Assembly (NCBI RefSeq): GCF_050920415.1
Contig: NZ_CP169309.1
Reading direction: 5' to 3' (one strand)
Length of the DNA: 64,000 nt
From: Escherichia coli
GTDB lineage: Bacteria > Pseudomonadota > Gammaproteobacteria > Enterobacterales > Enterobacteriaceae
Shown here: one piece after another, positions 2,396-37,892 of the stretch
Layout of the letters: each line of letters opens with the position of its first letter
Numbering within the stretch: the first letter of the stretch is position 1
Position numbers and translations under genes: made by a program
The notes under the pieces: generated by a model
What the model was told of the DNA's origin: nothing
Databases searched by the model: none
The model's input: only the letters and a program-made list of their open reading frames with translations

Positions 2396-2422
2396 ATGAC
2401 CATCTACATCACTGAGCTAATA

Positions 2423-2455
2423 AAAGGCCTGCTGGTAATCGCAGGCCTTTTTATT
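2423..2455 (+). terminator. Rho-independent terminator between primase-helicase and ninB
   Basis: Hairpin AAAGGCCTGC-(loop)-GCAGGCCTTT followed by T-run. Confidence 0.6.
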
Positions 2456-2472
2456 TGGGGGAGAGGGAAGTC

Positions 2473-2913
2473 ATGAAAAAACTAACCTTTGAAATTCGAT
2501 CTCCGGCACATCAGCAAAACGCTATTCACGCGGTACAGCAAATCCTTCCAGACCCAACCAAGCCAATCGTAGTGATCATTCAGGAGCGCAACCGCAGCTT
2601 AGACCAGAATCGGAAGCTTTGGGCTTGCCTTGGTGACGTCTCTCGTCAGGTTGAATGGCATGGGCGTTGGCTGGATGCAGAAAGCTGGAAGTGTGTGTTT
2701 ACCGCAGCATTAAAGCAGCAGGATGTTGTTCCTAACCTTGCCGGGAATGGCTTTGTGGTAATAGGCCAGTCAACCAGCAGGATGCGTGTAGGCGAATTTG
2801 CGGAGCTATTAGAGCTTATACAGGCATTCGGTACAGAGCGTGGCGTTAAGTGGTCAGACGAAGCGCGACTGGCTCTCGAATGGAAAGCGCGATGGGGAGA
2901 TCGGGCTGCATGA
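2473..2913 (+). CDS. ninB: NinB recombination protein
   Basis: Translation MKKLTFEIRSPAHQQNAIHAVQQ... matches lambda NinB as recalled; start at internal ATG 2473 with GGGAGAGGGAAG SD. Confidence 0.9.
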   Translation: MKKLTFEIRSPAHQQNAIHAVQQILPDPTKPIVVIIQERNRSLDQNRKLWACLGDVSRQVEWHGRWLDAESWKCVFTAALKQQDVVPNLAGNGFVVIGQSTSRMRVGEFAELLELIQAFGTERGVKWSDEARLALEWKARWGDRAA

Positions 2914-3437
2914 CTATCAAATCAAATACGCCAGCACACGACAAGGACTGCTGGCAAACGCCGCTTTGGCTTTTTGATGCACTGGATATTGAGTTTGGAT
3001 TCTGGCTGGATTCGGCAGCGAGCGACAAAAACGCTCTGTGCGCTCACTGGCTAACTGAGGCCGACGACGCGCTCAATTCTGAGTGGGTAAGCCACGGTGC
3101 AATCTGGAATAACCCACCGTACAGCAATATCAGGCCGTGGGTGGAAAAAGCCGCTGAGCAGTGTATACAACAGCGACAGACGGTAGTGATGCTTGTGCCA
3201 GAGGATATGTCAGTCGGATGGTTCAGCAAGGCTCTGGAGAGTGTCGACGAAGTTCGTATTATCACTGATGGACGGATTAATTTTATCGAACCATCGACAG
3301 GGCTAGAGAAGAAGGGAAACAGCAAAGGTTCCATGCTGCTGATTTGGCGACCGTTCATCAGTCCTCGACGGATGTTTACTACCGTATCCAAAGCGGCATT
3401 GATGGCGATCGGGCAGGGCGTCAGGAGGGCGGCATGA
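2910..3437 (+). CDS. Phage DNA N6-adenine methyltransferase (Dam-family)
   Basis: NPPY catalytic motif (..[11 protein letters not shown]..); start overlaps ninB stop (ATGA); occupies the ninC/ninD position. Confidence 0.8.
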
Positions 3438-3616
3438 GACGACAGCGACGAAGTATCACCGACATAATCTGCGAAAACTGCAAATACCTTCCAACGAAGC
3501 GCTCCAGAAATAAACGCAAGCCAATCCCAAAAGAATCTGACGTAAAAACCTTCAACTACACGGCTCACCTGTGGGATATCCGGTGGCTTAGAGAACGTGC
3601 GAGGAAAATAAGGTGA
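3434..3616 (+). CDS. ninE: NinE protein
   Basis: [34 protein letters not shown]... matches lambda NinE as recalled. Confidence 0.85.
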
Positions 3617-3783
3617 TTGACCCAAATCGAAGTTACGAACAAGAAAGCGTAGAGCGGGCTTTAACGTGCGCTAACTGCGGTCAGAAGCTGCATGTGCTTG
3701 AAGTTCACGTGTGTGAGCACTGCTGCGCAGAACTGATGAGCGATCCGAATAGCTCAATGTACGAGGAAGAAGACGATGAATGA
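3613..3783 (+). CDS. ninF: NinF protein
   Basis: GTG start overlapping ninE stop; translation ..[46 protein letters not shown].. matches lambda NinF as recalled. Confidence 0.8.
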
Positions 3784-4498
3784 GTTAATAAATGGCAATG
3801 CTATCAAAATGACAAGCATTGAAATCGCTGAGTTGGTGGGTAAGCGTCAAGACAATGTGAAACGTACCATCGAAACGCTGGCTAAAAATGGTGTTATCCG
3901 GCTTCCTCAAATTGAGGTTTCCGAAAGAATCAATAACTTAGGGTTCAATGTTCAGTACGAGCATTACGTCTTCGAAGGCGAACAAGGTAAGCGAGACAGT
4001 ATTGTCGTTGTTGCCCAGTTGTCGCCGGAATTCACCGCTCGTCTTGTTGACCGTTGGCGAGAGCTTGAGGAAACTGCGGTTAATATCCCCAAAACGCTAC
4101 CAGAAGCGTTGCGCCTTGCTGCTGATCTTGCTGAGCAGAAAATGCAACTGGAAAACCAGCTCGCAATTGCCGCACCTAAAGTTGAGTTTGCCGATCGCGT
4201 TGGCGAGGCCAGCGGAATTTTGATTGGAAACTTTGCAAAGGTTGTCGGTATTGGTCCAAACAAACTGTTTGCGTGGATGCGTGATCACAAAATCCTTATT
4301 GCTTCAGGTTCCCGGCGCAATGTGCCAATGCAGGAATATATGGATCGCGGCTATTTCACAGTGAAAGAAACAGCGGTCAACACAAATCACGGAATACAGA
4401 TATCGTTCACCACAAAAATCACCGGGCGTGGTCAACAGTGGCTGACCAGAAAGCTGCTCGATAACGGAATGCTGAAAGTAACAGGGGAGGCTGCTTAA
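3776..4498 (+). CDS. Rha-family phage regulatory protein with KilA-C/antirepressor-like C-terminal domain
   Basis: N-terminus MTSIEIAELVGKRQDNVKRTIETL resembles Phage_pRha domain; 240 aa in the position normally occupied by ninG. Confidence 0.6.
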   Translation: MNELINGNAIKMTSIEIAELVGKRQDNVKRTIETLAKNGVIRLPQIEVSERINNLGFNVQYEHYVFEGEQGKRDSIVVVAQLSPEFTARLVDRWRELEETAVNIPKTLPEALRLAADLAEQKMQLENQLAIAAPKVEFADRVGEASGILIGNFAKVVGIGPNKLFAWMRDHKILIASGSRRNVPMQEYMDRGYFTVKETAVNTNHGIQISFTTKITGRGQQWLTRKLLDNGMLKVTGEAA

Positions 4499-4788
4499 TG
4501 GCTAACCTACGCAAAGAAGCGCGCAACAGAGAATGCCAGGTACGTATTTACGGCGTATGCAATGGCAATCCTGAAACTACAGTTCTGGCACATTACCGGA
4601 TGGCTGGAATTTGCGGAACGGGAATGAAACCTGACGACCTGATCGGCGCATGGGCTTGTAGTGACTGCCACGCGGAGATCGACCGACGCACAAGGATTCT
4701 CGACAACAAAGACGCCAGACTTTACCACCTCGAAGGCGTGATAAGGACGCAGGCGATACTGCTGAAGGAGGGGAAGATTAAGCCATGA
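4498..4788 (+). CDS. DUF1364-family protein (YbcO-like, putative nuclease)
   Basis: Cys/His-rich translation ..RECQVRIYGVCNGNPETTVLAHYR..CSDCHAEIDRR.. resembles DLP12 YbcO as recalled. Confidence 0.7.
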   Translation: MANLRKEARNRECQVRIYGVCNGNPETTVLAHYRMAGICGTGMKPDDLIGAWACSDCHAEIDRRTRILDNKDARLYHLEGVIRTQAILLKEGKIKP

Positions 4789-5146
4789 ACGAATATCAGT
4801 TTGTGCTTCCATACCCGCCGTCGCTGAACACCTACTGGCGAAGACGGGGAGTCAATACTACATCAGCGATAAAGGCCAGAAATACCGAAAAGACGTTCAG
4901 CAAATCATCCGCCAACTTAAGTTAGACATTTTCACCAAATCACGACTCCGCATCAAAGTCATCGCAGACGTTCCAGACTCCCGCCGCCGCGACCTCGATA
5001 ACATCCTGAAGGGTTTACTCGACTCCCTTATCCACGCCGGATTTGCGGAAGACGACGAGCAATTCGATGACATTCGCGTAATTCGTGGTGTGAAAGTACC
5101 AGGCGGACGGCTTGGAATAAAAATCACCGAACTGGAGAACGTATGA
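4785..5146 (+). pseudogene. rusA: Holliday-junction resolvase RusA, interrupted by an apparent 1-nt deletion near 4848-4851
   Basis: N-terminal RusA-like MNEYQFVLPYPPSLNTYWRRRG in frame 0 from 4785, RusA-like C-terminus ..DVPDSRRRDLDNILKGLLDSLIHAGF..GGRLGIKITELENV in frame -1 ending 5146; span 362 nt is one short of 121 codons. Confidence 0.7.
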
Positions 5147-5331
5147 ACGCCACAATTCAAACGATACCAGAGCTTCTTATCCAGACACGAGGCAATCAGA
5201 CCGAAGTGGCGAGGATGCTTTCCTGCGCAAGAGGAACAGTGCTCAAGTACAACCGAGACAGCAAAGGCGAGCGTCACGTAATAGTTAACGGCGTCCTGAT
5301 GGTCAAACAGGGCAAAAGGGGAAGGCCATGA
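5143..5331 (+). CDS. ninH: NinH protein
   Basis: ..TIPELLIQTRGNQTEVARMLSCARGTVLKY.. resembles lambda NinH as recalled; ATGA overlap with rusA stop. Confidence 0.85.
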   Translation: MNATIQTIPELLIQTRGNQTEVARMLSCARGTVLKYNRDSKGERHVIVNGVLMVKQGKRGRP

Positions 5332-5951
5332 GACTAGAAAGCGTAGCTAAATTTCATTCGCCAAAAAGCCCGATGATGAGTGACTCACCACGGGCCACGG
5401 CTTCTGACTCTCTTTCCGGTACTGATGTGATGGCTGCTATGGGGATGGCGCAATCACAAGCCGGATTCGGAATGGCTGCATTCTGTGGTAAGCACGAACT
5501 CAGCCAGAACGACAAACAAAAGGCTATCAACTATCTGATGCAATTTGCACACAAGGTATCGGGGAAATACCGGGGTGTGGCAAAGCTCGAAGGAAATACT
5601 AAGGCAAAGGTACTGCAAGTGCTCGCAACATTCGCTTATGCTGATTATTGCCGTAGTGCCGCGACGCCGGGCGCAAGATGCAGAGATTGCCACGGTACAG
5701 GCCGTGCGGTTGATATAGCCAAAACAGAGCAGTGGGGGAGAGTTGTTGAGAAAGAGTGCGGAAGATGCAAAGGTGTCGGCTATTCAAGAATGCCAGCAAG
5801 CGCTGCATATCGCGCTGTAACGATGCTAATCCCAAACCTTACCCAACCCACCTGGTCACGCACTGTTAAGCCGCTGTATGACGCTCTGGTGGTGCAATGC
5901 CACAAAGAAGAGTCAATCGCAGACAACATTTTGAATGCGGTCACACGTTAG
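5328..5951 (+). CDS. Q: Late-gene antiterminator Q
   Basis: 207 aa; translation matches lambda Q as recalled (MRLESVAKFHSPKSPMMSDSPRATASDS...). Confidence 0.9.
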   Translation: MRLESVAKFHSPKSPMMSDSPRATASDSLSGTDVMAAMGMAQSQAGFGMAAFCGKHELSQNDKQKAINYLMQFAHKVSGKYRGVAKLEGNTKAKVLQVLATFAYADYCRSAATPGARCRDCHGTGRAVDIAKTEQWGRVVEKECGRCKGVGYSRMPASAAYRAVTMLIPNLTQPTWSRTVKPLYDALVVQCHKEESIADNILNAVTR

Positions 5952-5993: not shown

Positions 5994-6022
5994 TTGACTT
6001 TTTGAATAAAGTTGGGTAAATT
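5994..6022 (+). promoter_or_regulatory. Late promoter pR' (-35 TTGACT, 17-bp spacer, -10 TAAATT) with adjacent qut region
   Basis: Sequence TTGACTTTTTGAATAAAGTTGGGTAAATT matches lambda pR' as recalled. Confidence 0.7.
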
Positions 6023-24778: not shown

Positions 24779-25348
24779 ATGTCAAGCTTAGCAAAGTCAA
24801 CTGTAAATTGCACTAATAGCATCATCATTTCTGACGTCAAGATTCATATGGATTCAGAGGGTCGTTACTCGCTTAATGACCTTCATGTAGCGTCTGGAAA
24901 GGAGGAAAAACATCAGCCAGCTTTCTTCATGCGTAGAAATGAAACTATTGAATTGATTAATGAAATTTTTAATTCTGCGGATATGCAGAATAAGAATCCC
25001 GTCATTTCTAAGAAAGGTAGATATGGTGGAACATACGTGTGCAAGGAGCTTGTTTACTCCTACGCCATGTGGATTAGCGCAGCATTTGCGCTGAAGGTTA
25101 TCCGCGCATATGACGCAATGGTTACTGCCACACAAGAGAGGAAGGCTATTGGCGGTAAAACTTCAGTAGCTGAACGCACGCCGCTACGCGATGCAGTAAA
25201 CATGCTGGTAGGAAAGAAAGGACTTCGCTATGACGATGCATACAATATGGTTCATCAGCGTTTTGGTATTGACAGCATTGATGAACTTTCAATTGAACAA
25301 ATCCCGCTGGCCGTAGAGTACATCCACAGGGTAGTGCTTGAAGGTGAG
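24779..25348 (+). pseudogene. ant: Antirepressor Ant, 5' part (KilA-N domain), interrupted by IS2
   Basis: KilA-N-like N-terminus; reading frame runs into IS2 left end, which supplies the stop (TAG at 25349-25351). Confidence 0.75.
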
Positions 25349-25439
25349 TAGACTGGCCCCCTGAATCTCCAGACAACCAGTATCACTTAAATAAGTGATA
25401 GTCTTAATACTAGTTTTTAGACTAGTCATTGGAGAACAG

Positions 25440-25805
25440 ATGATTGATGTCTTAGGGCCGGAGAAACGCAGACGGCGTACCACACAGGAAAAGATCGCAA
25501 TTGTTCAGCAGAGCTTTGAACCGGGGATGACGGTCTCCCTCGTTGCCCGGCAACATGGTGTAGCAGCCAGCCAGTTATTTCTCTGGCGTAAGCAATACCA
25601 GGAAGGAAGTCTTACTGCTGTCGCCGCCGGAGAACAGGTTGTTCCTGCCTCTGAACTTGCTGCCGCCATGAAGCAGATTAAAGAACTCCAGCGCCTGCTC
25701 GGCAAGAAAACGATGGAAAATGAACTCCTCAAAGAAGCCGTTGAATATGGACGGGCAAAAAAGTGGATAGCGCACGCGCCCTTATTGCCCGGGGATGGGG
25801 AGTAA
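25440..25805 (+). CDS. insC: IS2 transposase OrfA
   Basis: [41 protein letters not shown].. matches InsC as recalled. Confidence 0.9.
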
Positions 25806-26668
25806 GCTTAGTCAGCCGTTGTCTCCGGGTGTCGCGTGCGCAGTTGCACGTCATTCTCAGACGAACCGATGACTGGATGGATGGCCGCCGCAGTCGTCAC
25901 ACTGATGATACGGATGTGCTTCTCCGTATACACCATGTTATCGGAGAGCTGCCCACGTATGGTTATCGTCGGGTATGGGCGCTGCTTCGCAGACAGGCAG
26001 AACTTGATGGTATGCCTGCGATCAATGCCAAACGTGTTTACCGGATCATGCGCCAGAATGCGCTGTTGCTTGAGCGAAAACCTGCTGTACCGCCATCGAA
26101 ACGGGCACATACAGGCAGAGTGGCCGTGAAAGAAAGCAATCAGCGATGGTGCTCTGACGGGTTCGAGTTCTGCTGTGATAACGGAGAGAGACTGCGTGTC
26201 ACGTTCGCGCTGGACTGCTGTGATCGTGAGGCACTGCACTGGGCGGTGACTACTGGCGGCTTCAACAGTGAAACAGTACAGGACGTCATGCTGGGAGCGG
26301 TGGAACGCCGCTTCGGCGACGATCTTCCGTCGTCTCCAGTGGAGTGGCTGACGGATAATGGTTCATGCTACCGGGCTAATGAAACACGCCAGTTCGCCCG
26401 GATGTTGGGACTTGAACCGAAGAACACGGCGGTGCGGAGTCCGGAGAGTAACGGAATAGCAGAGAGCTTCGTGAAAACGATAAAGCGTGACTACATCAGT
26501 ATCATGCCCAAACCAGACGGGTTAACGGCAGCAAAGAACCTTGCAGAGGCGTTCGAGCATTATAACGAATGGCATCCGCATAGTGCGCTGGGTTATCGCT
26601 CGCCACGGGAATATCTGCGGCAGCGGGCTTGTAATGGGTTAAGTGATAACAGATGTCTGGAAATATAG
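25763..26668 (+). CDS. insD: IS2 transposase OrfB (overlaps orfA in -1 frame)
   Basis: 301 aa; DDE transposase matching InsD as recalled. Confidence 0.9.
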
Positions 26669-26679
26669 GGGCAAATCCA

Positions 26680-27005
26680 GTGAGTTCATTGGCAAACAAG
26701 AGAAGAAAACCAACGAGCTTTCTGCAAAAGAAGCAAACAGCCTTGTATGGTTATGGGATTATGCCAACCGCTCACAGGCATTATTCCGCGAATTGTATCC
26801 GGCATTAAAACAAATTCAATCGAACTATTCCGGCAGATGTCATGACTGCGGTTATGAGTTCTCCCGTATTATCGATATAGCGAGAGACGTTTTAATTAAT
26901 CACACACGAGATGTTGATATCAATGAGCCAGACGGACCAACGAATCTTTCCGCATGGATGAGACTTAAGAATAAAGAATTACCTCCTTCAGTACATAATT
27001 ACTGA
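26680..27005 (+). pseudogene. ant: Antirepressor Ant, 3' part
   Basis: After removing IS2 and one TSD copy (1336 bp) this frame joins 24779..25348 in frame, reconstructing a 296-aa protein. Confidence 0.7.
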
Positions 27006-27105: not shown

Positions 27106-29063
27106 ATGACAGACATTACAGCCAATGTTGTAGTGAGCATGCCTTCGCAACTCTTTACTATGGCCCGCTCTTTTAAAGCCGTAGCTAATGGTAAAATTTA
27201 TATCGGTAAAATTGACACTGACCCGGTAAATCCTGAAAACCAGATTCAGGTTTATGTAGAGAACGAAGACGGCTCTCACGTTCCTGTTTCGCAACCAATC
27301 ATCATTAACGCTGCTGGATATCCGGTATATAACGGACAGATTGCCAAATTCGTAACTGTGCAAGGCCATTCTATGGCTGTATATGATGCGTATGGTGCAC
27401 AGCAGTTCTATTTTCCTAATGTGCTGAAGTATGACCCTGATCAGTTTAAGCAGCAGTTAGAAAGCGATGCTGATGGAATGGGAGATGCATTAGTTACAGT
27501 TAAACAACCGTACACTGGTGCTACTTCTATTTCACAGCACATTAAAAATTCACAGGCTATAAGTGTTATTGATTTTGGCGCTACAATTGACGGAACGCTT
27601 CACCCTTTAAGCGAGATATTTTCAACACTATCAGCCGCTCAGATGGTATATCCATTTGTTTCATCTCTATCTCAATCTGTTGATTATGCTGCGCTTCAGT
27701 CCGCATGTAACACGGGAAAAACAGTGCTTATTCCAAAGGGAACTGGTTACTATAATTCAACTATTTTTCTGAAAAACTCCGTCAGGATTGTTGGAGAGGG
27801 AACTGATACAATAAATAGAGCGCAATCATTTATGTCTATTGTTGGTAATATTTCAGCCTTTGCTTTAGATCAAGGTGATTCACTATCGACAAAAATGATT
27901 CAGATTTTTATTGATGGTCTTTATATTTTCTATGATCCAGGAACCACACCAACGAATCCTGAAGATGATGGTGGGAAAATTGCATTTAATTTCTACTCGA
28001 CAATTCCAAATTCAACAAGCTTGGAAATGTCTGAAATTAAAAACTGTACAGTTCATGGTGCATGGTCATGCTTTAATGATCAGACTGGCACATACTTGAC
28101 AAAACTTACGAATGTGTGGGCCAGAAACTGCCATAATGGTTTTACAAAAGGAACTGGCACTACCATTCTGATGGAAAGATGTTATACATCTGGATGTATA
28201 TCACCATATCAGTTTGGTTCTGTCTTTGCAGCTACAATGATTAACTGTGCCATGGATGGATCAAATATTTCGTTAAACGCAGGTTCGCTTGGTGGGGCTG
28301 GCGTTCATGTTCTTAACACACATAGTTTTAACATTATTGGTTTTGATGCGGAGGGTAACACCATCTCTACAGATGGTTATGGAGAGGCAGCACTATTCCA
28401 TTTCGAAAATAGTAGTGGTGGCATTTCTGGCCTGACTGCACATCAGAACAGCATGCGAAGTGTTGCGCCAAGTGATGCTGGTGTAGTTTCCTACATCAGG
28501 GCGTCAGGTAGCAGCGATGTAAAATTGAGTCATCAGAAGATGATTTATCTGACACCAACACAGTTGCATATACTGGGTCTGGGTATCCCATCATGCTACA
28601 TGCAACTGACACAGCTAAAATAAGCGTCTTTAATAGCAGATTCAGGGCGACTACCACTGGTACCCCTGTCTTAAGTACGCTAAGTACTGGTGATGTATCA
28701 TGGTATGACTGCCCTAAAAAAACAGGACTTATCGTAGATGGTTATTCACAAATAACATCTAAGGAAGGATTGCAAACATCATGCTTCTATACCAGTAAAG
28801 GCTCTACTGCTGTTGCTGAAAATACTCCGACAACACTTTTCTCTCTACCAGATTCGCAAGGTACTTACATTATTAGCGTATGGGGGGCTGGAAGCGGAGA
28901 AAATTACGCATCTACACAACTGGCAATGTATGATGGAGATAAGCTAATTCTTGTTGCGTTAAAAATAGCAGCATTTCTTAGTTTTTCAGCAACAGGGAGA
29001 ATTGTAACCATTACAAGCCAGGGCACAGGCACTTTTAATTGGACCTACACAAAAATAGGTTAA
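27106..29063 (+). pseudogene. Tailspike with P22-like head-binding N-terminus and divergent receptor-binding domain; apparent 1-nt frameshift between 28512 and 28590
   Basis: N-terminus [11 protein letters not shown]...[33 protein letters not shown] matches P22 gp9 as recalled; frame 27106..28623 and frame 28512..29063 overlap, together about 652 codons. Confidence 0.65.
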
Positions 29064-29206: not shown

Positions 29207-30364
29207 TCACTCCACCTTTTCATCAATCCAATCCGCCCACCACTGCATCATTTCTCTGCGCTTATCGAGATACTGAGCATGGTTGTAAATTCCGCGCACA
29301 GATCCGCCGTTGGCATGTGCCAGTTGCACTTCAATAGCATCAGCAGGCCATTCGTGCTCGTTCATAATCGTGCTGAATTCATGCCTGAATCCGTGACCGC
29401 TTTCCAGACCTTCATAGCCGATTTGTTTGATCACAAGCAGTACCGCGTTCTCGCAGATTGGCTTCTTCTTATCGTTGCGCCCGGCAAAAACAAACTCTGA
29501 TACTGGTTTGGTGATTGAGCTTAGCGTAGTGAGAAGTTCAACCACCTGGTCCGACATCGGGACAACATGAATCTTGCGTCCCTTCATCACACTGGCGTCG
29601 ATAGTGATAATCCTGTTTTCAAAATCGACGTTCTTCCATTGCATGGAACGAAGCTCTTTCGTTCTTAGGGCTGTGTAGCGTAAAACTTTGGTCGCAATGA
29701 GCGATACGATACTTCCTGAAAATGTTGCCAGTGCTTTGTTGAATGCAGGGATCTGGTCTGCAGGAAGAAACGGGAAGTTCTTCTTGCGGTATCCCTTCAT
29801 GGCGTCAGCAAGGTCAGGTGCCGGGTTATATTTAGCCCTTCCGGTGACAATAGCGTAACGGAAAACCTCGCCGCATCTTCTGCGTGCTTTGTTGGCTCGC
29901 TCCATTGCACCGCGATCTTCAAATCTGCGGATTACTTCCAGAAGTTGCATCGGCTCAATATCCTGAATTTCAAGGCTGCCGATGATAGGTAAAATGTCGT
30001 CATCAAACATTTTGGCAAGTTCAGTTGCATAGCCTACTGACCAGACTTGCTTCTTGTGCTCGTACCATTCCTTGTAAATCGCACTAAAGGAATTGTTGTT
30101 AGACGAAGCCTTTTTCGCCTTTACCGGATCGATACCAACCGAGATGTCTTTCCTCGCAGTCCATGCTTTATCCCTTGCCTCCTGCAAAGTCATAAGCGGA
30201 TATTTTCCGACGGTCAGGATTTTCTCCTTACCGTCAATCTTGTAGCGAAGCTGCCATACCTTTTTCCCTGACACAGGGACATAAAGGTACAGGCCATTAC
30301 CATCGAGAAGGCGGTATGGTTTTTCTTTCGGCTTTGCTGCTTCAATCTGCTTAACGGTGAGCAT
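29207..30364 (-). CDS. intS: Tyrosine integrase (IntS-like)
   Basis: MLTVKQIEAAKPKEKPYRLLDGNGLYLYVP.. matches recalled K-12 IntS; start taken at Met13 of the listed ORF. Confidence 0.9.
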   Translation of the reverse strand: MLTVKQIEAAKPKEKPYRLLDGNGLYLYVPVSGKKVWQLRYKIDGKEKILTVGKYPLMTLQEARDKAWTARKDISVGIDPVKAKKASSNNNSFSAIYKEWYEHKKQVWSVGYATELAKMFDDDILPIIGSLEIQDIEPMQLLEVIRRFEDRGAMERANKARRRCGEVFRYAIVTGRAKYNPAPDLADAMKGYRKKNFPFLPADQIPAFNKALATFSGSIVSLIATKVLRYTALRTKELRSMQWKNVDFENRIITIDASVMKGRKIHVVPMSDQVVELLTTLSSITKPVSEFVFAGRNDKKKPICENAVLLVIKQIGYEGLESGHGFRHEFSTIMNEHEWPADAIEVQLAHANGGSVRGIYNHAQYLDKRREMMQWWADWIDEKVE

Positions 30365-30525
30365 GGGTAAAAATCCGGTGGGTAAAATTATTTTATCCAC
30401 TTTTTACCCGTCATGGTGTGCGGCTGTCAACGATCTGACGCGAACCATGACGAACTGTGAATCTACGGAAGGCTTGATATTCAGGGGATTTTGCGGACTG
30501 GTACGGATGGGAGCGAACTGATAAA

Positions 30526-30600
30526 TGGTGTCCCCTGCAGGAATCGAACCTGCAATTAGCCCTTAGGAGGGGCTCGTTATATCCATTTAACTAAGAGGAC
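30526..30600 (-). tRNA. argW: tRNA-Arg (argW), prophage integration site
   Basis: Reverse complement reads GTCCTCTTAGTTAAATGGATATAACGAGCCCCTCCTAAGGGCTAATTGCAGGTTCGATTCCTGCAGGGGACACCA. Confidence 0.95.
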
Positions 30601-30675: not shown

Positions 30676-31608
30676 TTATGCCGGGTTTTTATCATTTTTC
30701 TTAATGTTTTCCGCACGTTCTGCTTTTTGTCGTGCTTCTGCTTTGCGCTTGTTGCTCATGTCGTTACGGATCTGTGCATGACTCATTAACGCGAATATAA
30801 AGGTGCCGCCGCAGATGTTTCCTGCCAGAGTAGGCAGCGCGAAGGGCCAGATGAAATCGCTCCAGTGCAGCGTGCCGTTAAATACCAGATAGAGGATTTC
30901 TACAGAACCGACAACGATGTGGGTGGTGTCTCCGAGGGCGATAAGCCAGGTCATTAATATAATCACTACAATCTTTGCCGCACCCGCTGCAGGAAACATC
31001 CATACCATAGTGGCGATCAGCCAGCCGGAAATGATCGCGTTGGCAAACATCTCACTGGGGGTGTTCTTCATCACATCCATGCCGATTTTTACAAATGCAT
31101 CGCGAGTTTCTTCATTAAAGATAGGCATATATTCAAATGCCCACGCCGCAATACCTGTCCCGAGAATATTCCCCAGCAGCACGACGCCCCATAACCGCAT
31201 AAGTAAGCCGACGTTGCTCATTGTCGGTTTTTGCATGACGGGTAGTACCGCAGTCACGGTGTTTTCGGTAAATAATTGCTGGCGGGCCATAATGACGATA
31301 ATAAAGCCAAAGGTATAACCGAGATTCTCCAGCAAGAAACTGCCCGGCACGCCTTCCAGTTCGACATGAAATATCCCTTTTGCCAGTAGTGAAGCGCCCA
31401 TCGACAGACCCGCCGCAATGGCTGACCACAGTAGCGCCATTGCGTCGCGTTCCAGCTCTTTTTCACCATCCTGGCGGATATGTTCATGAATTGCCATCGC
31501 CCGGGAGGGGAGTCGGTCTTCATCTATTTCTATTTTTTTGCCGCGTTCTTTTTCTTCGCTCTCAACTTCAATTTCGTCGCTGTGTTGATCAATTTTGTCG
31601 TTGTCCAT
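30676..31608 (-). CDS. yfdC: Formate/nitrite-transporter-family inner membrane protein
   Basis: 310 aa polytopic membrane protein; synteny with K-12. Confidence 0.8.
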   Translation of the reverse strand: MDNDKIDQHSDEIEVESEEKERGKKIEIDEDRLPSRAMAIHEHIRQDGEKELERDAMALLWSAIAAGLSMGASLLAKGIFHVELEGVPGSFLLENLGYTFGFIIVIMARQQLFTENTVTAVLPVMQKPTMSNVGLLMRLWGVVLLGNILGTGIAAWAFEYMPIFNEETRDAFVKIGMDVMKNTPSEMFANAIISGWLIATMVWMFPAAGAAKIVVIILMTWLIALGDTTHIVVGSVEILYLVFNGTLHWSDFIWPFALPTLAGNICGGTFIFALMSHAQIRNDMSNKRKAEARQKAERAENIKKNDKNPA

Positions 31609-31902
31609 GGTCTCTTCTCTTGAATTAGCACGTATAGCTAAAGCGTAGCGGCTTTTTTGCTCGCAACTGGCGGGAGTTACTCTGAAAATGTAGAAAAGGC
31701 TGTGTTTGCCTTTTTCTGTTTCTATAGAATCAAGTAGCCTACAGGGCGTCGATTACCAGGCTATGATCAAATCAGCAAATCAGGGCGTCTGGACATCAGT
31801 TGACGTGCTGTTACAATCGCCCACACCTAAACAGGCGGATACGGTATCGTTCCGTCATGGATGGCAAACTGCATAAGCCATAAAAAAAACAGGGAGACAT
31901 TT

Positions 31903-32658
31903 ATGAAGCTTCGCCTGTCGGCGCTTGCTCTTGGAACTACGCTTCTGGTGGGGTGTGCGAGTTCCGGTACAGATCAGCAAGGGCGTTCTGACCCATTAGA
32001 AGGGTTCAACCGCACCATGTACAACTTCAACTTCAATGTATTAGACCCGTATATTGTTCGACCGGTCGCAGTCGCCTGGCGTGATTATGTTCCGCAACCG
32101 GCGCGTAACGGTTTGAGCAACTTTACCGGCAACCTTGAAGAACCTGCGGTGATGGTTAACTACTTCTTGCAGGGCGACCCTTATCAGGGGATGGTCCACT
32201 TTACCCGCTTTTTCCTGAACACTATTTTGGGGATGGGCGGCTTTATTGATGTTGCGGGGATGGCGAACCCGAAACTGCAACGGACTGAACCTCACCGCTT
32301 CGGTAGTACGCTTGGTCATTATGGCGTGGGGTATGGGCCGTACGTACAATTACCGTTCTACGGAAGCTTCACGCTGCGTGATGACGGCGGTGATATGGCG
32401 GATGGTCTTTACCCGGTACTTTCCTGGCTGACCTGGCCGATGTCCGTGGGTAAATGGACGCTTGAAGGTATCGAAACCCGTGCGCAACTGCTGGATTCCG
32501 ACGGCCTGCTGCGTCAGTCGTCCGACCCATACATTATGGTGCGCGAAGCGTACTTCCAGCGTCATGATTTCATCGCCAATGGCGGCGAACTCAAACCGCA
32601 GGAAAACCCGAACGCGCAAGCGATTCAGGATGAGTTAAAAGATATCGATTCTGAATAA
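31903..32658 (+). CDS. mlaA: Outer-membrane lipoprotein MlaA (VacJ)
   Basis: Start at ATG 31903 (MKLRLSALALGTTLLVGCASS lipoprotein signal); 251 aa. Confidence 0.9.
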   Translation: MKLRLSALALGTTLLVGCASSGTDQQGRSDPLEGFNRTMYNFNFNVLDPYIVRPVAVAWRDYVPQPARNGLSNFTGNLEEPAVMVNYFLQGDPYQGMVHFTRFFLNTILGMGGFIDVAGMANPKLQRTEPHRFGSTLGHYGVGYGPYVQLPFYGSFTLRDDGGDMADGLYPVLSWLTWPMSVGKWTLEGIETRAQLLDSDGLLRQSSDPYIMVREAYFQRHDFIANGGELKPQENPNAQAIQDELKDIDSE

Positions 32659-32668
32659 GAAACAAATA

Positions 32669-32698
32669 AAAAGGTGAGTCGCAAAACTCACCTTTTTT
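32669..32698 (+). terminator. Rho-independent terminator after mlaA
   Basis: AAAGGTGAGT..ACTCACCTTTTTT hairpin. Confidence 0.7.
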
Positions 32699-32837
32699 GT
32701 TGTTATCCCTCAATTACCACAAGTAAAAGGAGACAAACCGACAATGACCCGGACGAATTATGTAAAAATACTGATGTTCGTCACTGACTGTTTCCGATAT
32801 TCAGACGTTGAAAAATCAAAAAACTGGACAAATAATT

Positions 32838-34037
32838 TTAATTATCATCAAAATTAACACCCAACGCAGAGAGTTGTTTAATTTCACTTTGATATTTCAT
32901 CTGGCGATTTTGAAGTCTTTTTTCAACTTTATCTTCGATTTCCTTAAACTGTTTATATTCATTTTGAGAGTTGTCAACGTCAACTTCGTTAGCGAATAAA
33001 GTAGAAATTATTTCTTTTACATTATCGCGTCTAAATTTTGCATCGTCCACTTGAAAATTGTATCTTATTGCTCGACCTAAACGTTTAAAAACTTCGTTAG
33101 GTTCTCTCAGTCTTTCCCCGTTGAGCTCGTTTACAACCTGATGATCGGAACCTGTTGCGAATGATTCTGCCATGATAGCTTTACTGCTTTCAAACCACGC
33201 TGAAGCATTCCTGGCGTTTTCACTACAATATTGGGTGAGACTATCACCATTAATACGAATTCCTCTTTGAATGTGGTAGTCGTCCTGATCGTAGTAACCG
33301 AGAGATAAGTAATCATTTCCGTTTTTATTTTTAATTACAATAGCGAGAGAGTCGCCTTTTTTATCTTTACCGTACCAGGTAAATAAGTCCGTTGGTTCGC
33401 TTTTCCCGCTCTCATCAAGTTTCGTTACCGTATGTCTGAGTTTGTGTGATATTTTATCGAAGATAAAACCAGGATTTCCATCATATATTTCTTTTATTGC
33501 GCTGAAGATCATTTCCTTGTTATGGATATCATGAGTATTCTCTACTACATTTTCACTGATGATGGTTTGACCGACTTTTTTGTTTTCATCGTTCGCAGGT
33601 GATTTTGTTGGTTCTTGATTATTAATACCAATAATACCATCATCAGTATATTCAGCATTATTTATATCATCATGAGTCTTCTCAACTATGTTGTCATTAA
33701 TGATAGTACGGACGAGTTCTTTGTCTTTATAGTTCGCAGATAATTTTATTGGTTCTTGGTTGTCGATACCAATAGTAATATAGTCTGTATCATTGGAGCC
33801 AATATCAATATAAGTAACTGAGGAATTATTGATAATTATTCTATCAAGTTCACCGGTTCCTCGTATGGCATTTTTTATAAGCTCAAGTAGATGTTTAATA
33901 CAGGTACTTATTCCTTCCTTGCCATTAAAAAGGTTTTTGAACTCTTGTACTAATCCATTAACTTCATTATTGTTATTTTCATTGGTGGATTCTGTGTAAG
34001 TTGGGCAGGTATTGTTGATTGAAACAGCTGGTAGCAT
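32838..34037 (-). CDS. yfdF: Uncharacterised protein YfdF-like
   Basis: 399 aa, Asn/Asp-rich; position between mlaA and fadL. Confidence 0.6.
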   Translation of the reverse strand: MLPAVSINNTCPTYTESTNENNNNEVNGLVQEFKNLFNGKEGISTCIKHLLELIKNAIRGTGELDRIIINNSSVTYIDIGSNDTDYITIGIDNQEPIKLSANYKDKELVRTIINDNIVEKTHDDINNAEYTDDGIIGINNQEPTKSPANDENKKVGQTIISENVVENTHDIHNKEMIFSAIKEIYDGNPGFIFDKISHKLRHTVTKLDESGKSEPTDLFTWYGKDKKGDSLAIVIKNKNGNDYLSLGYYDQDDYHIQRGIRINGDSLTQYCSENARNASAWFESSKAIMAESFATGSDHQVVNELNGERLREPNEVFKRLGRAIRYNFQVDDAKFRRDNVKEIISTLFANEVDVDNSQNEYKQFKEIEDKVEKRLQNRQMKYQSEIKQLSALGVNFDDN

Positions 34038-34403
34038 GATTTTATTCCACGTTGATTGATTTGTTGCAAATATATATTACCTAATAAAATAGACTATCAA
34101 AAAACGCTCATTTATTTAGAACCTATCTTTAATTTGAGTGTATGAGTGCATAATAGCCAGGGTGGTTTGAGTATCCTGGAAATTCAGAAAAGTAAACTCA
34201 TTGAGAAGGACGAGCAGAATGCCTGATAATCTGTCTTTCCCTTTAGGCCTGTCTGTGGATAACGCTTACAAATTTGCAAGGGCAAGCTGCCATCAGGCTG
34301 TTTGCAAAACTCAGGAGGCAAGCAATGAGGAAACTACTTTCGGTGAAGAGAGGGAGTTAAAGTCACCTGCATAGCAGGTGACTTTAACTAAGCTAACGCG
34401 TTA

Positions 34404-35744
34404 TCAGAACGCGTAGTTAAAGTTCGTCCCGAACAGCCAGGCTTTACCTTCAGACTCGAACTGATATGGGCCTTCGTTAATTTTCACGCTCTGGCCGTGC
34501 ATATAAGAAACACCAACGTCGACTGAAGCATCTTTATTAAATGCGTAAGTCGTACCTGCACTCAGCCAGAAACGGTCCTGGTCCGGAATGGAGATAGAAC
34601 GATTCTGTGCCGGAACTGGGCTGTCATCGAAGGCGATACCGGTACGGAAGGTCCAGTTATCATCGTAGTAATAAGTGGTACCCAACGCGATGCGGTAAGC
34701 ATCTTTAAAGCCTTCATGTTTCTGGAACAGCGTGTCGCCACTCGTTGATGTCGCTTTCAGTTGCTGGAACTGACTCCAGCTGGTGTAAGCCAGGCTATAG
34801 TGAATTGCCCACTGCGGATCAACACGGTTATAACCCGACACTTCCCACATTTCAGGCAGGTTCAGCGTCAGATAACCCGACTGCGTAGAGCCACCTGTCG
34901 CGGTAGGAATTGGCAAACCGTAGTTATTAAAAGCCGGGTTAAGATCGCTGCTGTAGTTACCCTTGAAGTCAATTTTCACTTCAGAGCGGTAGGTCAATGC
35001 GTAGCGGTTGTTTTTATCCAGTTCGTACAGGATCCCGGCGTTCCAGCCAAAGCCCCACTGGTTACCGTTCAGGTGAGCGATTTTGGTATTACTGTCGATG
35101 CCGTTGGCGGTAGCTGCTAATGCTTGCCCCTGAGGAGTCCGCCCAGCAGGAGATTGCATAATCTGACCAGCCACCAGTTGCCCCAGATCGCCTGCAAAAC
35201 GTTCAATTTTCGCACGAGCGTAGACGGCGTTGAAACCGAGACCAAAGCTCCATGCATTATTTAAGCGATACGCACCGCTTAAGTTCAGGTTCATGGTTTC
35301 GAGGTCGGTGGTACCACCGACAGAGCCGCCTGCATAAGTATCGTTAAACTCTGTCGCCAGACCATAGTTAGAGGTAATAGAAGCCCCCCAACCAAATTGG
35401 TCGTTAATCGGTGCAACAAAGTGCATGTTCGGAACCCATGCCGTAGGCGCGATATTATCGGCTTTCAGGCTACGACCAGACGGAGACGTTCCGCTGATAT
35501 TTACGTCCGGATCTATATAAACCGCACCCGCAGAAAATGTCGGGCGGTCAAACATGGTAATCAACGCGGGGTTACGGCTGACGTTACCTGCATCATCGGC
35601 AATAGCGCCTTCCCCTGAATAAGCCCGGCCCAGGCCAGAGGAAGAAAATTCGTTTAACTGAAAGCCTGCCGACCAGGCCTGGGTGGAGATAAGTGCCACT
35701 GCGACTGCGATAGCAGACTTTGTAAACAGGGTTTTCTGGCTCAT
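34404..35744 (-). CDS. fadL: Long-chain fatty acid outer-membrane transporter FadL
   Basis: Signal peptide [26 protein letters not shown]-terminal aromatic residue; 446 aa. Confidence 0.9.
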
Positions 35745-36115
35745 GACCATAACCTCAATGATTTATTTTTATACAAACTATGTTACGTACTGTAACAGGA
35801 GCGCGAAGTGTAGGGTCTGAGGTACATCTTAGAAATCAGACCAGTGGCGAGAGTATAGGTCGGACCAGATGGAATGTTGCAAGTATGTTTCTATATTTTT
35901 TCAAATATGATCTAAGAAACGCGATCCAGCTGGCAAAATTTGGAGGTGGCGCACTCATGGATTCGGGTGAATTTTGTTTTAGATCATTTTTAAGTGTGAT
36001 TTCGGTCACTTATCCGATTTTGCAGAATTAACAACTGGAGCAGCACTTTCCGGAAGCGTAAAATATCCCCAACGTTTATCTGGCACCTTAGGTGCACATA
36101 CAGAGGAAATCAACG

Positions 36116-36400
36116 ATGAGTAAATGTAGTGCTGATGAAACCCCGGTTTGCTGCTGTATGGATGTTGGCACCATTATGGACAACTCCGACTGCACCGCGT
36201 CTTACAGCCGCGTGTTTGCAAACCGCGCAGAAGCAGAACAAACGCTGGCGGCGCTGACTGAAAAAGCCCGTAGCGTGGAATCCGAACCTTGCAAAATCAC
36301 CCCGACTTTCACTGAAGAGTCTGACGGTGTGCGCCTGGATATCGATTTCACTTTTGCCTGCGAAGCTGAAATGTTGATCTTCCAGCTGGGTCTGCGTTAA
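36116..36400 (+). CDS. yfcZ: YfcZ family protein
   Basis: 94 aa MSKCSADETPVCCCMDVGT.. ; synteny. Confidence 0.8.
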   Translation: MSKCSADETPVCCCMDVGTIMDNSDCTASYSRVFANRAEAEQTLAALTEKARSVESEPCKITPTFTEESDGVRLDIDFTFACEAEMLIFQLGLR

Positions 36401-36581
36401 TTCCTCTCGGGTATATACGCCCCTGTCAGTTCCTGGCGGGGGCTTTTTTATTTTCTCTTCCTCTTTTCTCTCTGTGTCATAGCTCCCACTTTCCCTTTTC
36501 TCCACTTGGCTAAATGTAAAAAAATGGTTAAGACTATGATCAGGTCAGACCACTTTATTTATTTTTTTACAGGGGAGTGTT

Positions 36582-37892
36582 ATGGGTCAGGTTTTACCGC
36601 TGATTACCCGCCAGGGCGATCGTATCGCCATTGTTAGCGGCTTACGTACGCCTTTTGCCCGTCAGGCGACGGCTTTTCATGGCATTCCCGCTGTTGATTT
36701 GGGGAAGATGGTCGTAGGCGAATTGCTGGCACGCAGCGAGATCCCCGCCGAAGTGATTGAACAACTGGTTTTTGGTCAGGTCGTACAAATGCCTGAAGCC
36801 CCCAACATTGCGCGTGAAATTGTTCTTGGCACCGGAATGAATGTCCATACCGATGCTTACAGCGTCAGCCGCGCTTGTGCTACCAGTTTTCAGGCGGTTG
36901 CAAACGTCGCCGAAAGCCTGATGGCGGGAACTATTCGTGCGGGGATTGCCGGCGGGGCAGATTCCTCTTCCGTATTGCCCATTGGTGTTAGTAAAAAACT
37001 GGCGCGCGTGTTGGTGGATGTCAACAAAGCCCGCACGATGAGCCAACGACTGAAACTTTTTTCTCGCCTGCGTTTGCGTGACTTAATGCCCGTACCGCCT
37101 GCGGTGGCGGAGTATTCCACAGGCTTGCGGATGGGCGACACCGCCGAACAAATGGCGAAAACCTACGGTATTACTCGCGAACAGCAAGATGCGCTGGCGC
37201 ACCGTTCACATCAGCGTGCTGCTCAGGCATGGTCAGAAGATAAGCTCAAAGAAGAGGTAATGACCGCCTACGTTCCTCCTTATAAACAACCGCTCGCGGA
37301 AGACAACAATATTCGCGGCAATTCCACGCTTGCTGATTACGCAAAGCTGCGTCCGGCGTTTGATCGCAAACACGGGACGGTAACGGCAGCAAACAGTACG
37401 CCGCTGACCGATGGCGCAGCGGCGGTGATCCTGATGACTGAATCACGGGCGAAAGAATTGGGCCTGGTGCCGCTGGGATATCTGCGTAGCTACGCATTTA
37501 CCGCTATTGATGTCTGGCAGGACATGTTGCTCGGCCCGGCCTGGTCAACGCCGCTGGCGCTGGAACGCGCTGGATTGACGATGGCCGATCTGACATTGAT
37601 TGACATGCACGAAGCCTTTGCCGCCCAGACGCTGGCTAATATTCAGTTGCTTGGCAGCGAACGTTTTGCGCGCGACGTACTGGGGCGTTCCCATGCTACT
37701 GGTGAAGTGGACGATAGTAAGTTTAACGTGCTTGGTGGTTCCATTGCGTACGGGCATCCCTTCGCAGCGACTGGAGCGCGGATGATTACCCAGACATTGC
37801 ATGAACTTCGCCGTCGCGGCGGTGGATTTGGCTTAGTGACCGCTTGTGCTGCTGGTGGGCTTGGTGCGGCAATGGTTCTGGAGGCGGAATAA
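36582..37892 (+). CDS. fadI: 3-ketoacyl-CoA thiolase (anaerobic beta-oxidation)
   Basis: 436 aa thiolase; synteny with fadJ. Confidence 0.95.

Follow-up and report, generated by a model that had tools for sequence, protein, structure and literature searches.

Introduction

The nin operons of lambdoid phages draw on a pool of 30–50 genes, all of them dispensable under laboratory conditions, of which each phage carries about ten. In lambda the order is ninB-C-D-E-F-G-H-I-Q, with ninC and ninD filling the slot between ninB and ninE. That slot is empty in HK022 and CUS-3 and holds a dam gene in VT2-Sakai, which has roi plus ninG elsewhere in the operon. Roi of HK022 is said to be a site-specific DNA-binding protein that works with IHF, not a repressor binder; it reportedly binds a site in its own gene beside an IHF site and, in the absence of IHF, prevents lytic growth. 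The closest described systems are HK140 (JQ086370) and HK97 (AF069529, gp61–gp69), in which ninB is followed by a Dam methyltransferase gene, ninE, ninF, roi, gp66/ybcO, rusA, ninH and Q. The VT2-Sakai enzyme has been named M.EcoVT2Dam and catalogued as an orphan methyltransferase with GATC as its predicted target (Table 3 of PMC6602927), and the cloning of this VT-2 Dam in 2001 is cited in PMC7556043.

Here we analyze a stretch of 64,000 nucleotides of Escherichia coli DNA (RefSeq assembly GCF_050920415.1, contig NZ_CP169309.1), referred to below as the window. A preliminary description of it had singled out a methyltransferase and a KilA-C-type regulator as cargo in a lambda-like nin operon. 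We conclude that positions 2400–5951 very probably belong to a lambdoid prophage of P22-like (CUS-3/HK620-like) type and form its delayed-early nin operon, with an HK97/HK140-type gene content that has already been described.

Results

Read in order, and all on the + strand, positions 2400–5951 hold a tR2-like terminator, ninB, dam, ninE, ninF, roi, ybcO, rusA, ninH and Q (Table 1). The ORF map, the junctions and the folding analysis show that small genes, overlapping one another, fill the interval from the replication genes to Q, with a tR2-type terminator on the 5' side and a pR'-like site on the 3' side, as in other lambdoid nin operons; ninB, ninE, ninF, ninH and Q all lie where they had been placed beforehand. 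The gene order is identical to that annotated in HK140 and HK97, with nucleotide identities of 97.2% to HK140 over 3,001 nt and 95.1% to HK97, and per-protein identities to the two phages of 86–100%. At least 80% of this 3-kb stretch is present in 211 of 5,426 complete E. coli genomes. Nor is the cargo unusual: the block is a standard HK97/HK140/HK620-type nin region, an ordinary and known variety among lambda-like E. coli phages, and contains nothing new.

Table 1. Features of the nin region, with positions counted from the first nucleotide of the window
Feature	Position	Strand	Basis
tR2-type intrinsic terminator, GC-rich hairpin (AAAAGGCCTGC...GCAGGCCTTTT) then TATTT	2423–2453	+	Folding and homology; between replication genes and ninB
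ninB (Orf-family recombination mediator), 146 aa	2473–2913	+	Pfam NinB 1.3e-53; 97–98% to HK97 gp61 and HK140 NinB
dam, orphan phage N6-adenine DNA methyltransferase, 175 aa	2910–3437	+	PF05869 6.4e-65; TIGR01712 265.9 bits
Putative AdoMet-binding motif, F31–S38 (FWLDSAAS)	3000–3023	+	L33, D34 and A36 invariant (25-sequence alignment); SAM role inferred
NPPY catalytic motif IV, N68-P69-P70-Y71	3111–3122	+	Read from sequence; invariant in alignment
ninE, 60 aa	3434–3616	+	Pfam NinE 3.2e-43
ninF, 56 aa, CxxC...CxxC zinc-ribbon-like	3613–3783	+	Pfam NinF 1.6e-12
roi, DNA-binding protein Roi, 240 aa	3776–4498	+	Pfam and PHROG matches; identity to named Roi proteins
IHF core consensus AATCAATAACTTA, in variable N-terminal part of roi	3928–3940	+	Pattern search
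ybcO (DUF1364, putative nuclease), 96 aa	4498–4788	+	PF07102 2.3e-42
rusA (Holliday-junction resolvase) pseudogene	4785–5146	+	Aligned to HK140 and HK97 rusA
ninH, 62 aa	5143–5331	+	Pfam Phage_NinH 2e-24; 100% to HK97 and HK140 proteins
Q, late-gene antiterminator, 207 aa	5328–5951	+	Pfam Antiterm 1.3e-57; 99% to HK97 and HK140 Q
pR'-type late promoter, TTGACT-17-TAAATT	5994–6022	+	Promoter-like site downstream of Q

Within the operon, the window differs from HK140 and HK97 in that rusA is frameshifted. Around it, the replication module encodes a 626-aa Toprim/DnaB-like primase-helicase, whereas HK140 has O/P plus ren and HK97 a DnaB-like P, and the virion module is P22-like, unlike that of either phage. 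Compared with lambda, ninB, ninE, ninF, Q and the tR2 interval are ~95–97% identical at the nucleotide level and the overlapping style of the junctions is common to both, but dam replaces ninC and ninD, and the trio roi, ybcO and rusA stands in place of ninG. The lambda ninH allele is not detectably similar to that of the window at the DNA level. There is no ninI in the window's operon, an absence that had gone unmentioned.

The tR2-like hairpin was missed by a simple terminator scan and was caught by folding, with an energy of −21.1 kcal/mol (z = −3.1 vs. shuffles), and by homology, being 100% identical to HK022 over 43 nt and lying inside a 95.6% match to the lambda ren–ninB interval. At the other end, the pR'-type site aligns with an HK140 promoter annotated as similar to lambda PR'. 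On the lambda model, transcription from pR would have to pass the tR2-type terminator and then ninB-dam-ninE-ninF-roi-ybcO-rusA-ninH to reach Q, and the nin genes would be translationally coupled through their overlapping stop and start codons.

These overlaps are ATGA at ninB/dam, dam/ninE, ybcO/rusA, rusA/ninH and ninH/Q, GTGA at ninE/ninF, an 8-nt overlap at ninF/roi (ATGAATGA) and a 1-nt overlap (TAATG) at roi/ybcO. It had been claimed that the ATGA couplings show the cargo to be integrated into the operon and not recently inserted. The overlaps do exist, but the boundary motif GGGC(T/G)GC|ATGA, which closes ninB, dam and also lambda ninC, is common to the alternative cassettes, and it is precisely at the ATGA overlaps that homology to lambda and to HK022 stops. 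With one boundary motif shared by all alternative cassettes, the overlaps say nothing about the age of an insertion, and a cassette recombined in at these boundaries would look tightly coupled from day one.

The gene between ninB and ninE agrees with its earlier description as an orphan N6-adenine methyltransferase with an NPPY motif at the position of lambda ninC and ninD. Its product matches PF05869 with 218.4 bits (cutoff 28.1) over profile positions 1–167 of 169, and the cutoff for its TIGR01712 equivalog score is 97.05 bits. The NPPY tetrapeptide at residues 68–71 is unchanged across 25 homologues, down to 60% identity. In the same 25-sequence alignment F31-x-L33-D34-x-A36 is invariant; the model has a pLDDT below 50 at residues 32–42, and there is no solved homologue. 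Competence of these putative SAM-binding residues is favored by the match to an enzyme with reported activity: all 175 residues of the product are identical to VT2-Sakai orf32 (NP_050531, M.EcoVT2Dam), and identity to the HK140 and HK97 enzymes is 100% and 98.9%. M.EcoVT2Dam, a member of the T1/HP1/VT-2 phage Dam family (PF05869, TIGR01712), occupies the same ninB–ninE position in VT2-Sakai, but the ninB allele of that phage differs from the one in the window and only its last ~7 nt (the GGGCTGC boundary motif) match. Copies of dam with at least 95% identity occur in 1,565 of 5,426 complete E. coli genomes. The neighbors are ninB and ninE, no cognate endonuclease adjoins the gene, and PADLOC orphan-MTase models match at 3.6e-19.

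From its 100% identity to the catalogued enzyme, together with secondary citations, we infer that the dam product modifies GATC, the motif of host Dam. The listed target of host E. coli Dam (alpha-class) is the same, GATC m6A, but the 175-aa enzyme is unrelated to it, with no connection between them in Pfam or in the PDB sequence search; on sequence grounds the likeness appears to be functional mimicry, not orthology. When the PDB was searched with the Dam sequence, nothing meaningful matched. A structure model (mean pLDDT 73) gave only non-significant Foldseek matches (E ≥0.01) to TrmM, CamA, METTL3/14 and Type ISP methyltransferases, which are consistent with the expected m6A methyltransferase fold and are not counted as evidence. 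We also considered M.EcoGIX as a relative with relaxed specificity and rejected it; according to the literature it is plasmid-borne, single-stranded-DNA-specific and unrelated.

The 240-aa protein encoded after ninF has a C-terminal ANT/KilAC domain (Pfam, 7.3e-33, 113.6 bits) and an N-terminal Rha-like winged-helix (Phage_pRha, 2.9e-07), whose 31.4 bits are just over the cutoff of 29.9. It is 98.8% identical to Roi of HK140, 88% to that of HK022, 86–87% to that of HK97 and 85% to that of VT2-Sakai, and the identity to HK620 Roi is 99.2% across the N-terminal 120 aa. These identities mark the protein as Roi, of the HK620/HK140 allele type. The Roi proteins of HK022, HK620 and CUS-3 are likewise 240–242 aa long, follow ninF with the same ATGAATGA junction and share the C-terminal KilAC half. 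Across alleles, N-terminal residues ~20–65 fall into distinct types (window/HK620/HK140, HK97/HK022, VT2-Sakai and others), and because of this the DNA-binding specificity of the window Roi may differ from that of HK022. An AlphaFold model (pLDDT 75, pTM 0.37) has two helix-helix-hairpin modules linked by a long helix. Searched against known structures, it gave weak winged-helix matches of MarR, TFIIE, ScpB and RacA type (E >0.01), which are consistent with the expected fold and, again, are left out of the evidence; the PDB sequence search with Roi returned nothing meaningful.

The roi gene has an IHF core consensus at nt 153, within its variable N-terminal segment, where the core overlaps the codons of a conserved peptide, I-N-x-L-G. 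The core is kept at this position in six of eight distinct, diverged alleles, despite strongly differing surrounding codons. The IHF consensus is not enriched in the window, with four matches vs. 2.9 expected, and as a candidate site the core in roi is at most suggestive. A search of roi for repeats or operators found short, unconvincing matches only.

Roi had been proposed, together with the DUF1364 protein, to occupy the position of ninG. Both genes do lie between ninF and ninH, but Roi is no replacement for ninG, because VT2-Sakai has roi and then ninG. What replaces ninG (Rap junction endonuclease) is the ybcO-rusA pair, an alternative junction-resolvase module, and roi is an extra cassette, its product having two winged-helix-like domains. 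YbcO scores 143.3 bits against PF07102 (cutoff 29.9) and matches the PDB entry 3G27, YbcO of phage 82, at 1e-36 over residues 1–95. The rusA gene had been overlooked because one nucleotide is missing between 4849 and 4850, which shifts the frame after codon 22 and ends the ORF at 4925. It measures 362 nt here vs. 363 nt in HK140 and HK97, and an intact RusA homologue matches PDB RusA 1Q8R at 4e-27. In the window there is no intact ~120-aa RusA frame with the catalytic acidic residues of the C terminus, and no ORF of at least 40 aa in the downstream frame ending at 5146. The closest E. coli matches are all intact at this site (602 nt vs. 601 nt here), and a 44-mer spanning the frameshift had no exact match in 100,044 species-representative genomes. 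The frameshift could be a true lesion or an assembly error.

Discussion

If the methylase acts on GATC, its most likely role would be to keep fast-replicating phage DNA fully methylated at this site when host Dam is limiting or absent, which would shield the DNA from nucleases of unmethylated GATC and from MutH nicking. Lying downstream of tR2 in a repressor-controlled operon, dam would be made mainly after infection or induction, and in a lysogen the phage enzyme would create no new epigenetic motif. For the identical gene of Phi24B, qPCR gave a lytic-cycle expression pattern, and its authors credit a spontaneously induced subpopulation. A different reading makes the methylase adaptive cargo that acts in the lysogen, setting a prophage-specific m6A motif against host restriction or altering host expression. 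Orphan phage methylases can in general protect or regulate, and the Stx-phage M.EcoGIII (CTGCAG) of related strains affects the expression of many genes; in addition, Phi24B lysogen cultures yielded the product of the identical gene by CMAT detection. We nevertheless hold this reading to be highly improbable: the identical enzyme is listed as specific for GATC, which host Dam already saturates, the qPCR of the identical gene tracks the lytic cycle, and within the pR operon dam is preceded by a tR2-type terminator. In strains with M.EcoVT2Dam, the SMRT methylomes contained only GATC, CTGCAG and CRARCAG; every one of these motifs is either attributed to a different enzyme or common to host Dam, leaving no extra motif (PMC6602927). 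In strain EC958, a prophage Dam homologue, possibly of another family, was predicted inactive by RT-PCR. It has also been suggested, by the Phi24B authors for the identical protein, that the phage enzyme supplements host Dam and stabilizes lysogeny through GATC methylation at prophage or SOS-related promoters, and stable lysogeny of the Stx2 phage 933W is reported to need host Dam (Murphy et al., 2008). Such a role is very unlikely here, given lytic-linked expression of the identical gene, a delayed-early operon position that argues against expression in the repressed state, and the absence of dam altogether from HK022 and CUS-3.

Similar weighing applies to Roi and to the block as a whole. 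That the 240-aa protein is a true antirepressor, binding and inactivating the prophage's own or a heterologous repressor, is suggested by its ANT/KilAC domain, by a 1e-97 match to PHROG 63, which is labeled 'anti-repressor Ant', and by RefSeq names such as 'phage antirepressor KilAC domain-containing protein'. These labels, however, derive from domain homology alone, and an ant gene distinct from roi, encoding a KilA-N domain, is found in the immI-like region of the prophage at 24779–25351, where an IS interrupts it. Roi of HK022, 88% identical, is also said to be a site-specific DNA binder acting with IHF and not a binder of repressors, and we regard the antirepressor function as unlikely. 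A more elaborate idea starts from the hypervariable N-terminal part of roi (~3835–3965), which would encode the recognition domain and also hold the Roi/IHF target, such that each allele recognizes its own coding DNA; together with IHF, Roi would then act immediately ahead of Q as a roadblock or attenuator of the pR transcript, specific to each allele, and would time the expression of the late genes. The conserved placement of the IHF core fits this scheme, which we offer as a decidedly long shot. The entire block might instead be the inert relic of a defective prophage, its intact dam and roi frames reflecting recent decay, an interpretation compatible with the nin operon assignment. This P22-like prophage, located at argW, is disrupted by three lesions: the −1 frameshift in rusA, a −1 frameshift in the tailspike gene (around 28519) relative to a 97% identical 652-aa homologue, and an insertion of IS2 length (1,331 bp) that splits ant, with its junctions at ~25350 and ~26680. 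Given this damage, the nin genes may by now be remnants with no useful expression. Either single-base deletion might, however, have arisen in the assembly, and no damage is apparent in the early and lysis genes. Dam matches the reference enzyme at 100%, and the other nin genes, ninH and Q included, are undamaged with identities of 97–100%. Inertness of the whole block is possible but somewhat doubtful.

For this type of gene, a lysogen methylome is the wrong test. Finding no additional m6A motif in it is the expected result and not a refutation, because the enzyme copies the GATC motif of host Dam, its expression is linked to the lytic cycle and the methylomes of carriers show no extra motif. 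Start/stop overlaps in nin regions are, similarly, unusable for dating insertions. What phage GATC methylases and Roi do biologically is poorly understood in general; this locus has little value for discovery and gives no special handle on either. The two 'cargo' genes have been catalogued before and are common among E. coli, with dam in 29% and roi in 20% of complete genomes, and their arrangement here is textbook lambdoid mosaicism.

Gene content of the nin block

An ORF map and reading of the sequence showed that 2473–5951 is an unbroken series of + strand genes, most of which were also recognized by Pfam. The genes and positions of the preliminary description were borne out, as were the NPPY motif of the methylase (residues 68–71) and the overlapping junctions: six 4-nt overlaps (five ATGA and one GTGA), an 8-nt overlap at ninF/roi (ATGAATGA) and a 1-nt overlap, TAATG, at roi/ybcO. 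Its list had, however, overlooked rusA, as well as the absence of ninI, for which comparison with the lambda nin region found no counterpart in the window's nin block.

Features of the nin block and of the surrounding prophage
Feature	Position	Strand	Remarks
NinB	2473–2913	+	Pfam
Dam-type N6-adenine methyltransferase, 175 aa	2910–3437	+	Pfam E = 6.4e-65
NinE	3434–3616	+	Pfam
NinF	3613–3783	+	Pfam
Roi, 240 aa	3776–4498	+	Pfam ANT/KilAC domain 7.3e-33; N-terminal Phage_pRha match marginal (31.4 bits, cutoff 29.9)
YbcO/DUF1364	4498–4788	+	Pfam
rusA, frameshifted	4785–5146	+	between ybcO and ninH; aligned to HK140 and HK97 rusA
NinH	5143–5331	+	Pfam
Q	5328–5951	+	Pfam
ant, KilA-N domain part	24779–25351		gene resumes ~26680
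IS3-family transposase ORFs in ant insertion	25395–25805, 25763–26668
Tailspike, P22-type head-binding domain	27106–29063		broken into two ORFs (505 aa, 156 aa)
Integrase	29207–30400		adjoins tRNA-Arg(CCT)
tRNA-Arg(CCT)	30526–30600		argW

Relatives of the block and exchange of cassettes

When positions 2400–5400 were compared by megablast with 50,697 phage records, HK140 matched over all 3,001 nt at 97.2% identity and HK97 matched at 95.1%. Both have exactly the window's gene order: gp61 (NinB), gp62, gp63, gp64, Roi (gp65), gp66, gp67, gp68 and Q in HK97, and NinB, DNA N-6-adenine-methyltransferase, NinE, NinF, Roi, a hypothetical protein, RusA, NinH and Q in HK140, whose proteins are 94–100% identical to those of the window (Dam 100%, Roi 98.8%). 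Of 5,426 complete E. coli genomes, 211 contain ≥80% of the 3-kb stretch, 1,109 contain roi, and 1,565 contain dam at ≥95% identity, with up to five copies in one genome.

Between ninB and ninE, lambda carries ninC and ninD, HK022 and CUS-3 carry nothing, and the window, HK97, HK140 and VT2-Sakai carry dam. Further downstream, roi is followed by ninG in VT2-Sakai but by ybcO and rusA in the window, as in HK97, HK022, HK140 and CUS-3. Thus roi is a separate, additional cassette, and the alternative to ninG is ybcO-rusA. The earlier proposal that Roi and the DUF1364 protein occupy the ninG position therefore holds in part: Roi does not replace ninG, since VT2-Sakai has both, while ybcO does belong, with rusA, to the ninG alternative. 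The solved structure of phage 82 YbcO (3G27) is a match to the window YbcO at 1e-36, and the intact HK140 RusA matches 1Q8R at 4e-27.

The edges of these cassettes are sharp. Homology to lambda ends at 2913 and returns at 3441; that to HK022 ends at 2913 and returns at 3426. The sequence (A/G)GGC(T/G)GC|ATGA, or a close variant, forms the 3' end of ninB in the window, lambda, HK022 and VT2-Sakai (which has a different allele), and also that of dam and of lambda ninC. As GGGC(T/G)GC|ATGA it occurs in the window at 2903–2913 and 3427–3437, and also at the compared loci L001, L003, L004 and L005, with homology breaking exactly there. Following roi, both ybcO and ninG start with the same eight nucleotides, ATGGCTAA. 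Lambdoid phages have been proposed to exchange modules through short conserved boundary sequences, and the junction motifs of the window are such sequences; the CUS-3 record annotates a "boundary sequence" of this kind. The nin gene pool has been described as comprising 30–50 genes, ~10 per phage, none of them essential in the laboratory. Because the motif travels with the cassette, tight coupling says nothing about the time since arrival, and the argument that the ATGA overlaps mark an old, adapted insertion fails.

The Dam methylase

The window Dam is identical in 175/175 residues to VT2-Sakai orf32 (NP_050531), or M.EcoVT2Dam, an orphan methyltransferase with GATC listed as its specificity (PMC6602927). 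In strains with two copies of M.EcoVT2Dam only GATC, CTGCAG and CRARCAG were seen, the latter two being credited to other enzymes (PMC6602927). The protein scores 265.9 bits against the TIGR01712 equivalog model (cutoff 97), and many Dam positions, among them L33-D34-x-A36 and N68-P69-P70-Y71-S72, do not vary across 25 aligned homologues that reach down to 60% identity. A sequence search of the PDB found no solved structure, and the matches of an AlphaFold model (mean pLDDT 73) to m6A methyltransferases were all non-significant. Its neighbours are ninB and ninE, so it is an orphan enzyme; PADLOC orphan-MTase models match it as well.

Two database proteins from public genomes (P0002 and P0022, 233–235 aa) join Dam and NinE Pfam domains, so fusions across the ATGA junction, by read-through or frameshift, occur in relatives. 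The prophage part (1–30400) has fewer GATC sites than base composition predicts (74 observed vs 117.5 expected), in line with published reports on GATC-poor mobile elements; the host flank (30601–64000) has 110 vs 130 expected.

Operon signals and expression

Folding placed a GC-rich hairpin with a T-rich tail at 2423–2453, inside an interval 95.6% identical to the lambda ren-ninB spacer and in a region 100% identical to HK022 across 43 nt. In lambda, this spacer is the established site of the terminator tR2. The operon ends with Q and then a pR'-like promoter. By the lambda paradigm, the window's nin genes would be delayed-early and silent in a repressed prophage. Published work on Phi24B supports this reading for the identical protein: its CDS "CM2/dam" is 100% identical to NP_050531 and is one of four CMAT-detected genes with a lytic-cycle qPCR profile, its change upon induction being significant. 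Given this position and profile, no prophage-specific motif is expected in the methylome of the lysogen, and the lack of an additional m6A motif, which the preliminary description would have counted against its proposal, is therefore not a sound test.

Roi

The 240-aa protein is Roi, a protein already named in related phages. Over its N-terminal 120 residues it shares 99.2% identity with HK620 Roi, and over its whole length 88%, 87% and 85% with Roi of HK022, HK97 and VT2-Sakai, respectively. Differences concentrate at residues ~20–65 (a Rha-like helix-turn-helix and wing) and ~98–125, and the KilAC half is nearly invariant between alleles. Two more distant phages, PPyecE_EH1910 (L013) and Klebsiella phage ST11-VIM1phi8.3 (L014), have the Roi N-terminal domain (~63–65% identity in about the first 100 residues), but their C-terminal half is not related to KilAC, which indicates domain shuffling in the Roi/Rha group. 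The AlphaFold model (pLDDT 75, pTM 0.37) has a long helix joining two helix-helix-hairpin modules, with weak PDB matches, mostly to winged-helix regulators. The database name "antirepressor" derives solely from domain homology.

HK022 Roi is said, from the 1996 work of Clerget and Boccard, to bind a site in its own gene near an IHF site, and reportedly blocks lytic growth in IHF mutants. In the window, an IHF core match (WATCAANNNNTTR) lies at 3928–3940, nt 153 of roi, within the hypervariable part. It is kept at nt 153 in 6 of 8 distinct, diverged roi alleles, down to the synonymous positions of the Ile, Asn and Leu codons, although flanking codons differ strongly; it nevertheless coincides with a conserved peptide, I-N-x-L-G. 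IHF core matches were not enriched in the window (4 vs 2.9 expected), and a repeat search of roi gave no convincing operator-like repeat.

The surrounding prophage

The prophage is P22-like, and its right half lies in the window, with portal, coat and related genes. Its integration site is argW, since the flank carries yfdC, mlaA, fadL and intS-type annotation; this host flank (30676–40036; yfdC, mlaA, fadL, fadI, fadJ) is only ~98.5% identical to the best of the 5,426 complete genomes, so the strain of origin lies outside that set and may belong to a divergent Escherichia or Shigella lineage. The replication module (515–2395) encodes a single 626-aa Toprim and DnaB-like/AAA_25 primase-helicase, unlike the lambda O/P pair or the DnaB-like P of HK97, and homology to HK140 and lambda begins only at ~2396.

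Three genes are damaged. The rusA gene has 362 nt vs 363 in HK140 and HK97, with 1 nt missing between 4849 and 4850 that makes the frame stop at 4925; the deletion is absent from the closest E. coli copies and from species-representative genomes. The tailspike, which resembles sequenced phages in its first ~550–800 nt only, is split: compared with the 652-aa homologue of E. coli ETEC1730 (97% identical), it lacks 1 nt near 28519. The ant gene is interrupted by a 1,331-bp insertion (~25350–26680) of the length of IS2. These lesions reflect either decay of the prophage or indel errors in the assembly; rusA could be a true pseudogene or reflect such an error.

The block itself is real but ordinary: a nin region of the HK97/HK140 type with Roi and a GATC methylase that is already catalogued, M.EcoVT2Dam.
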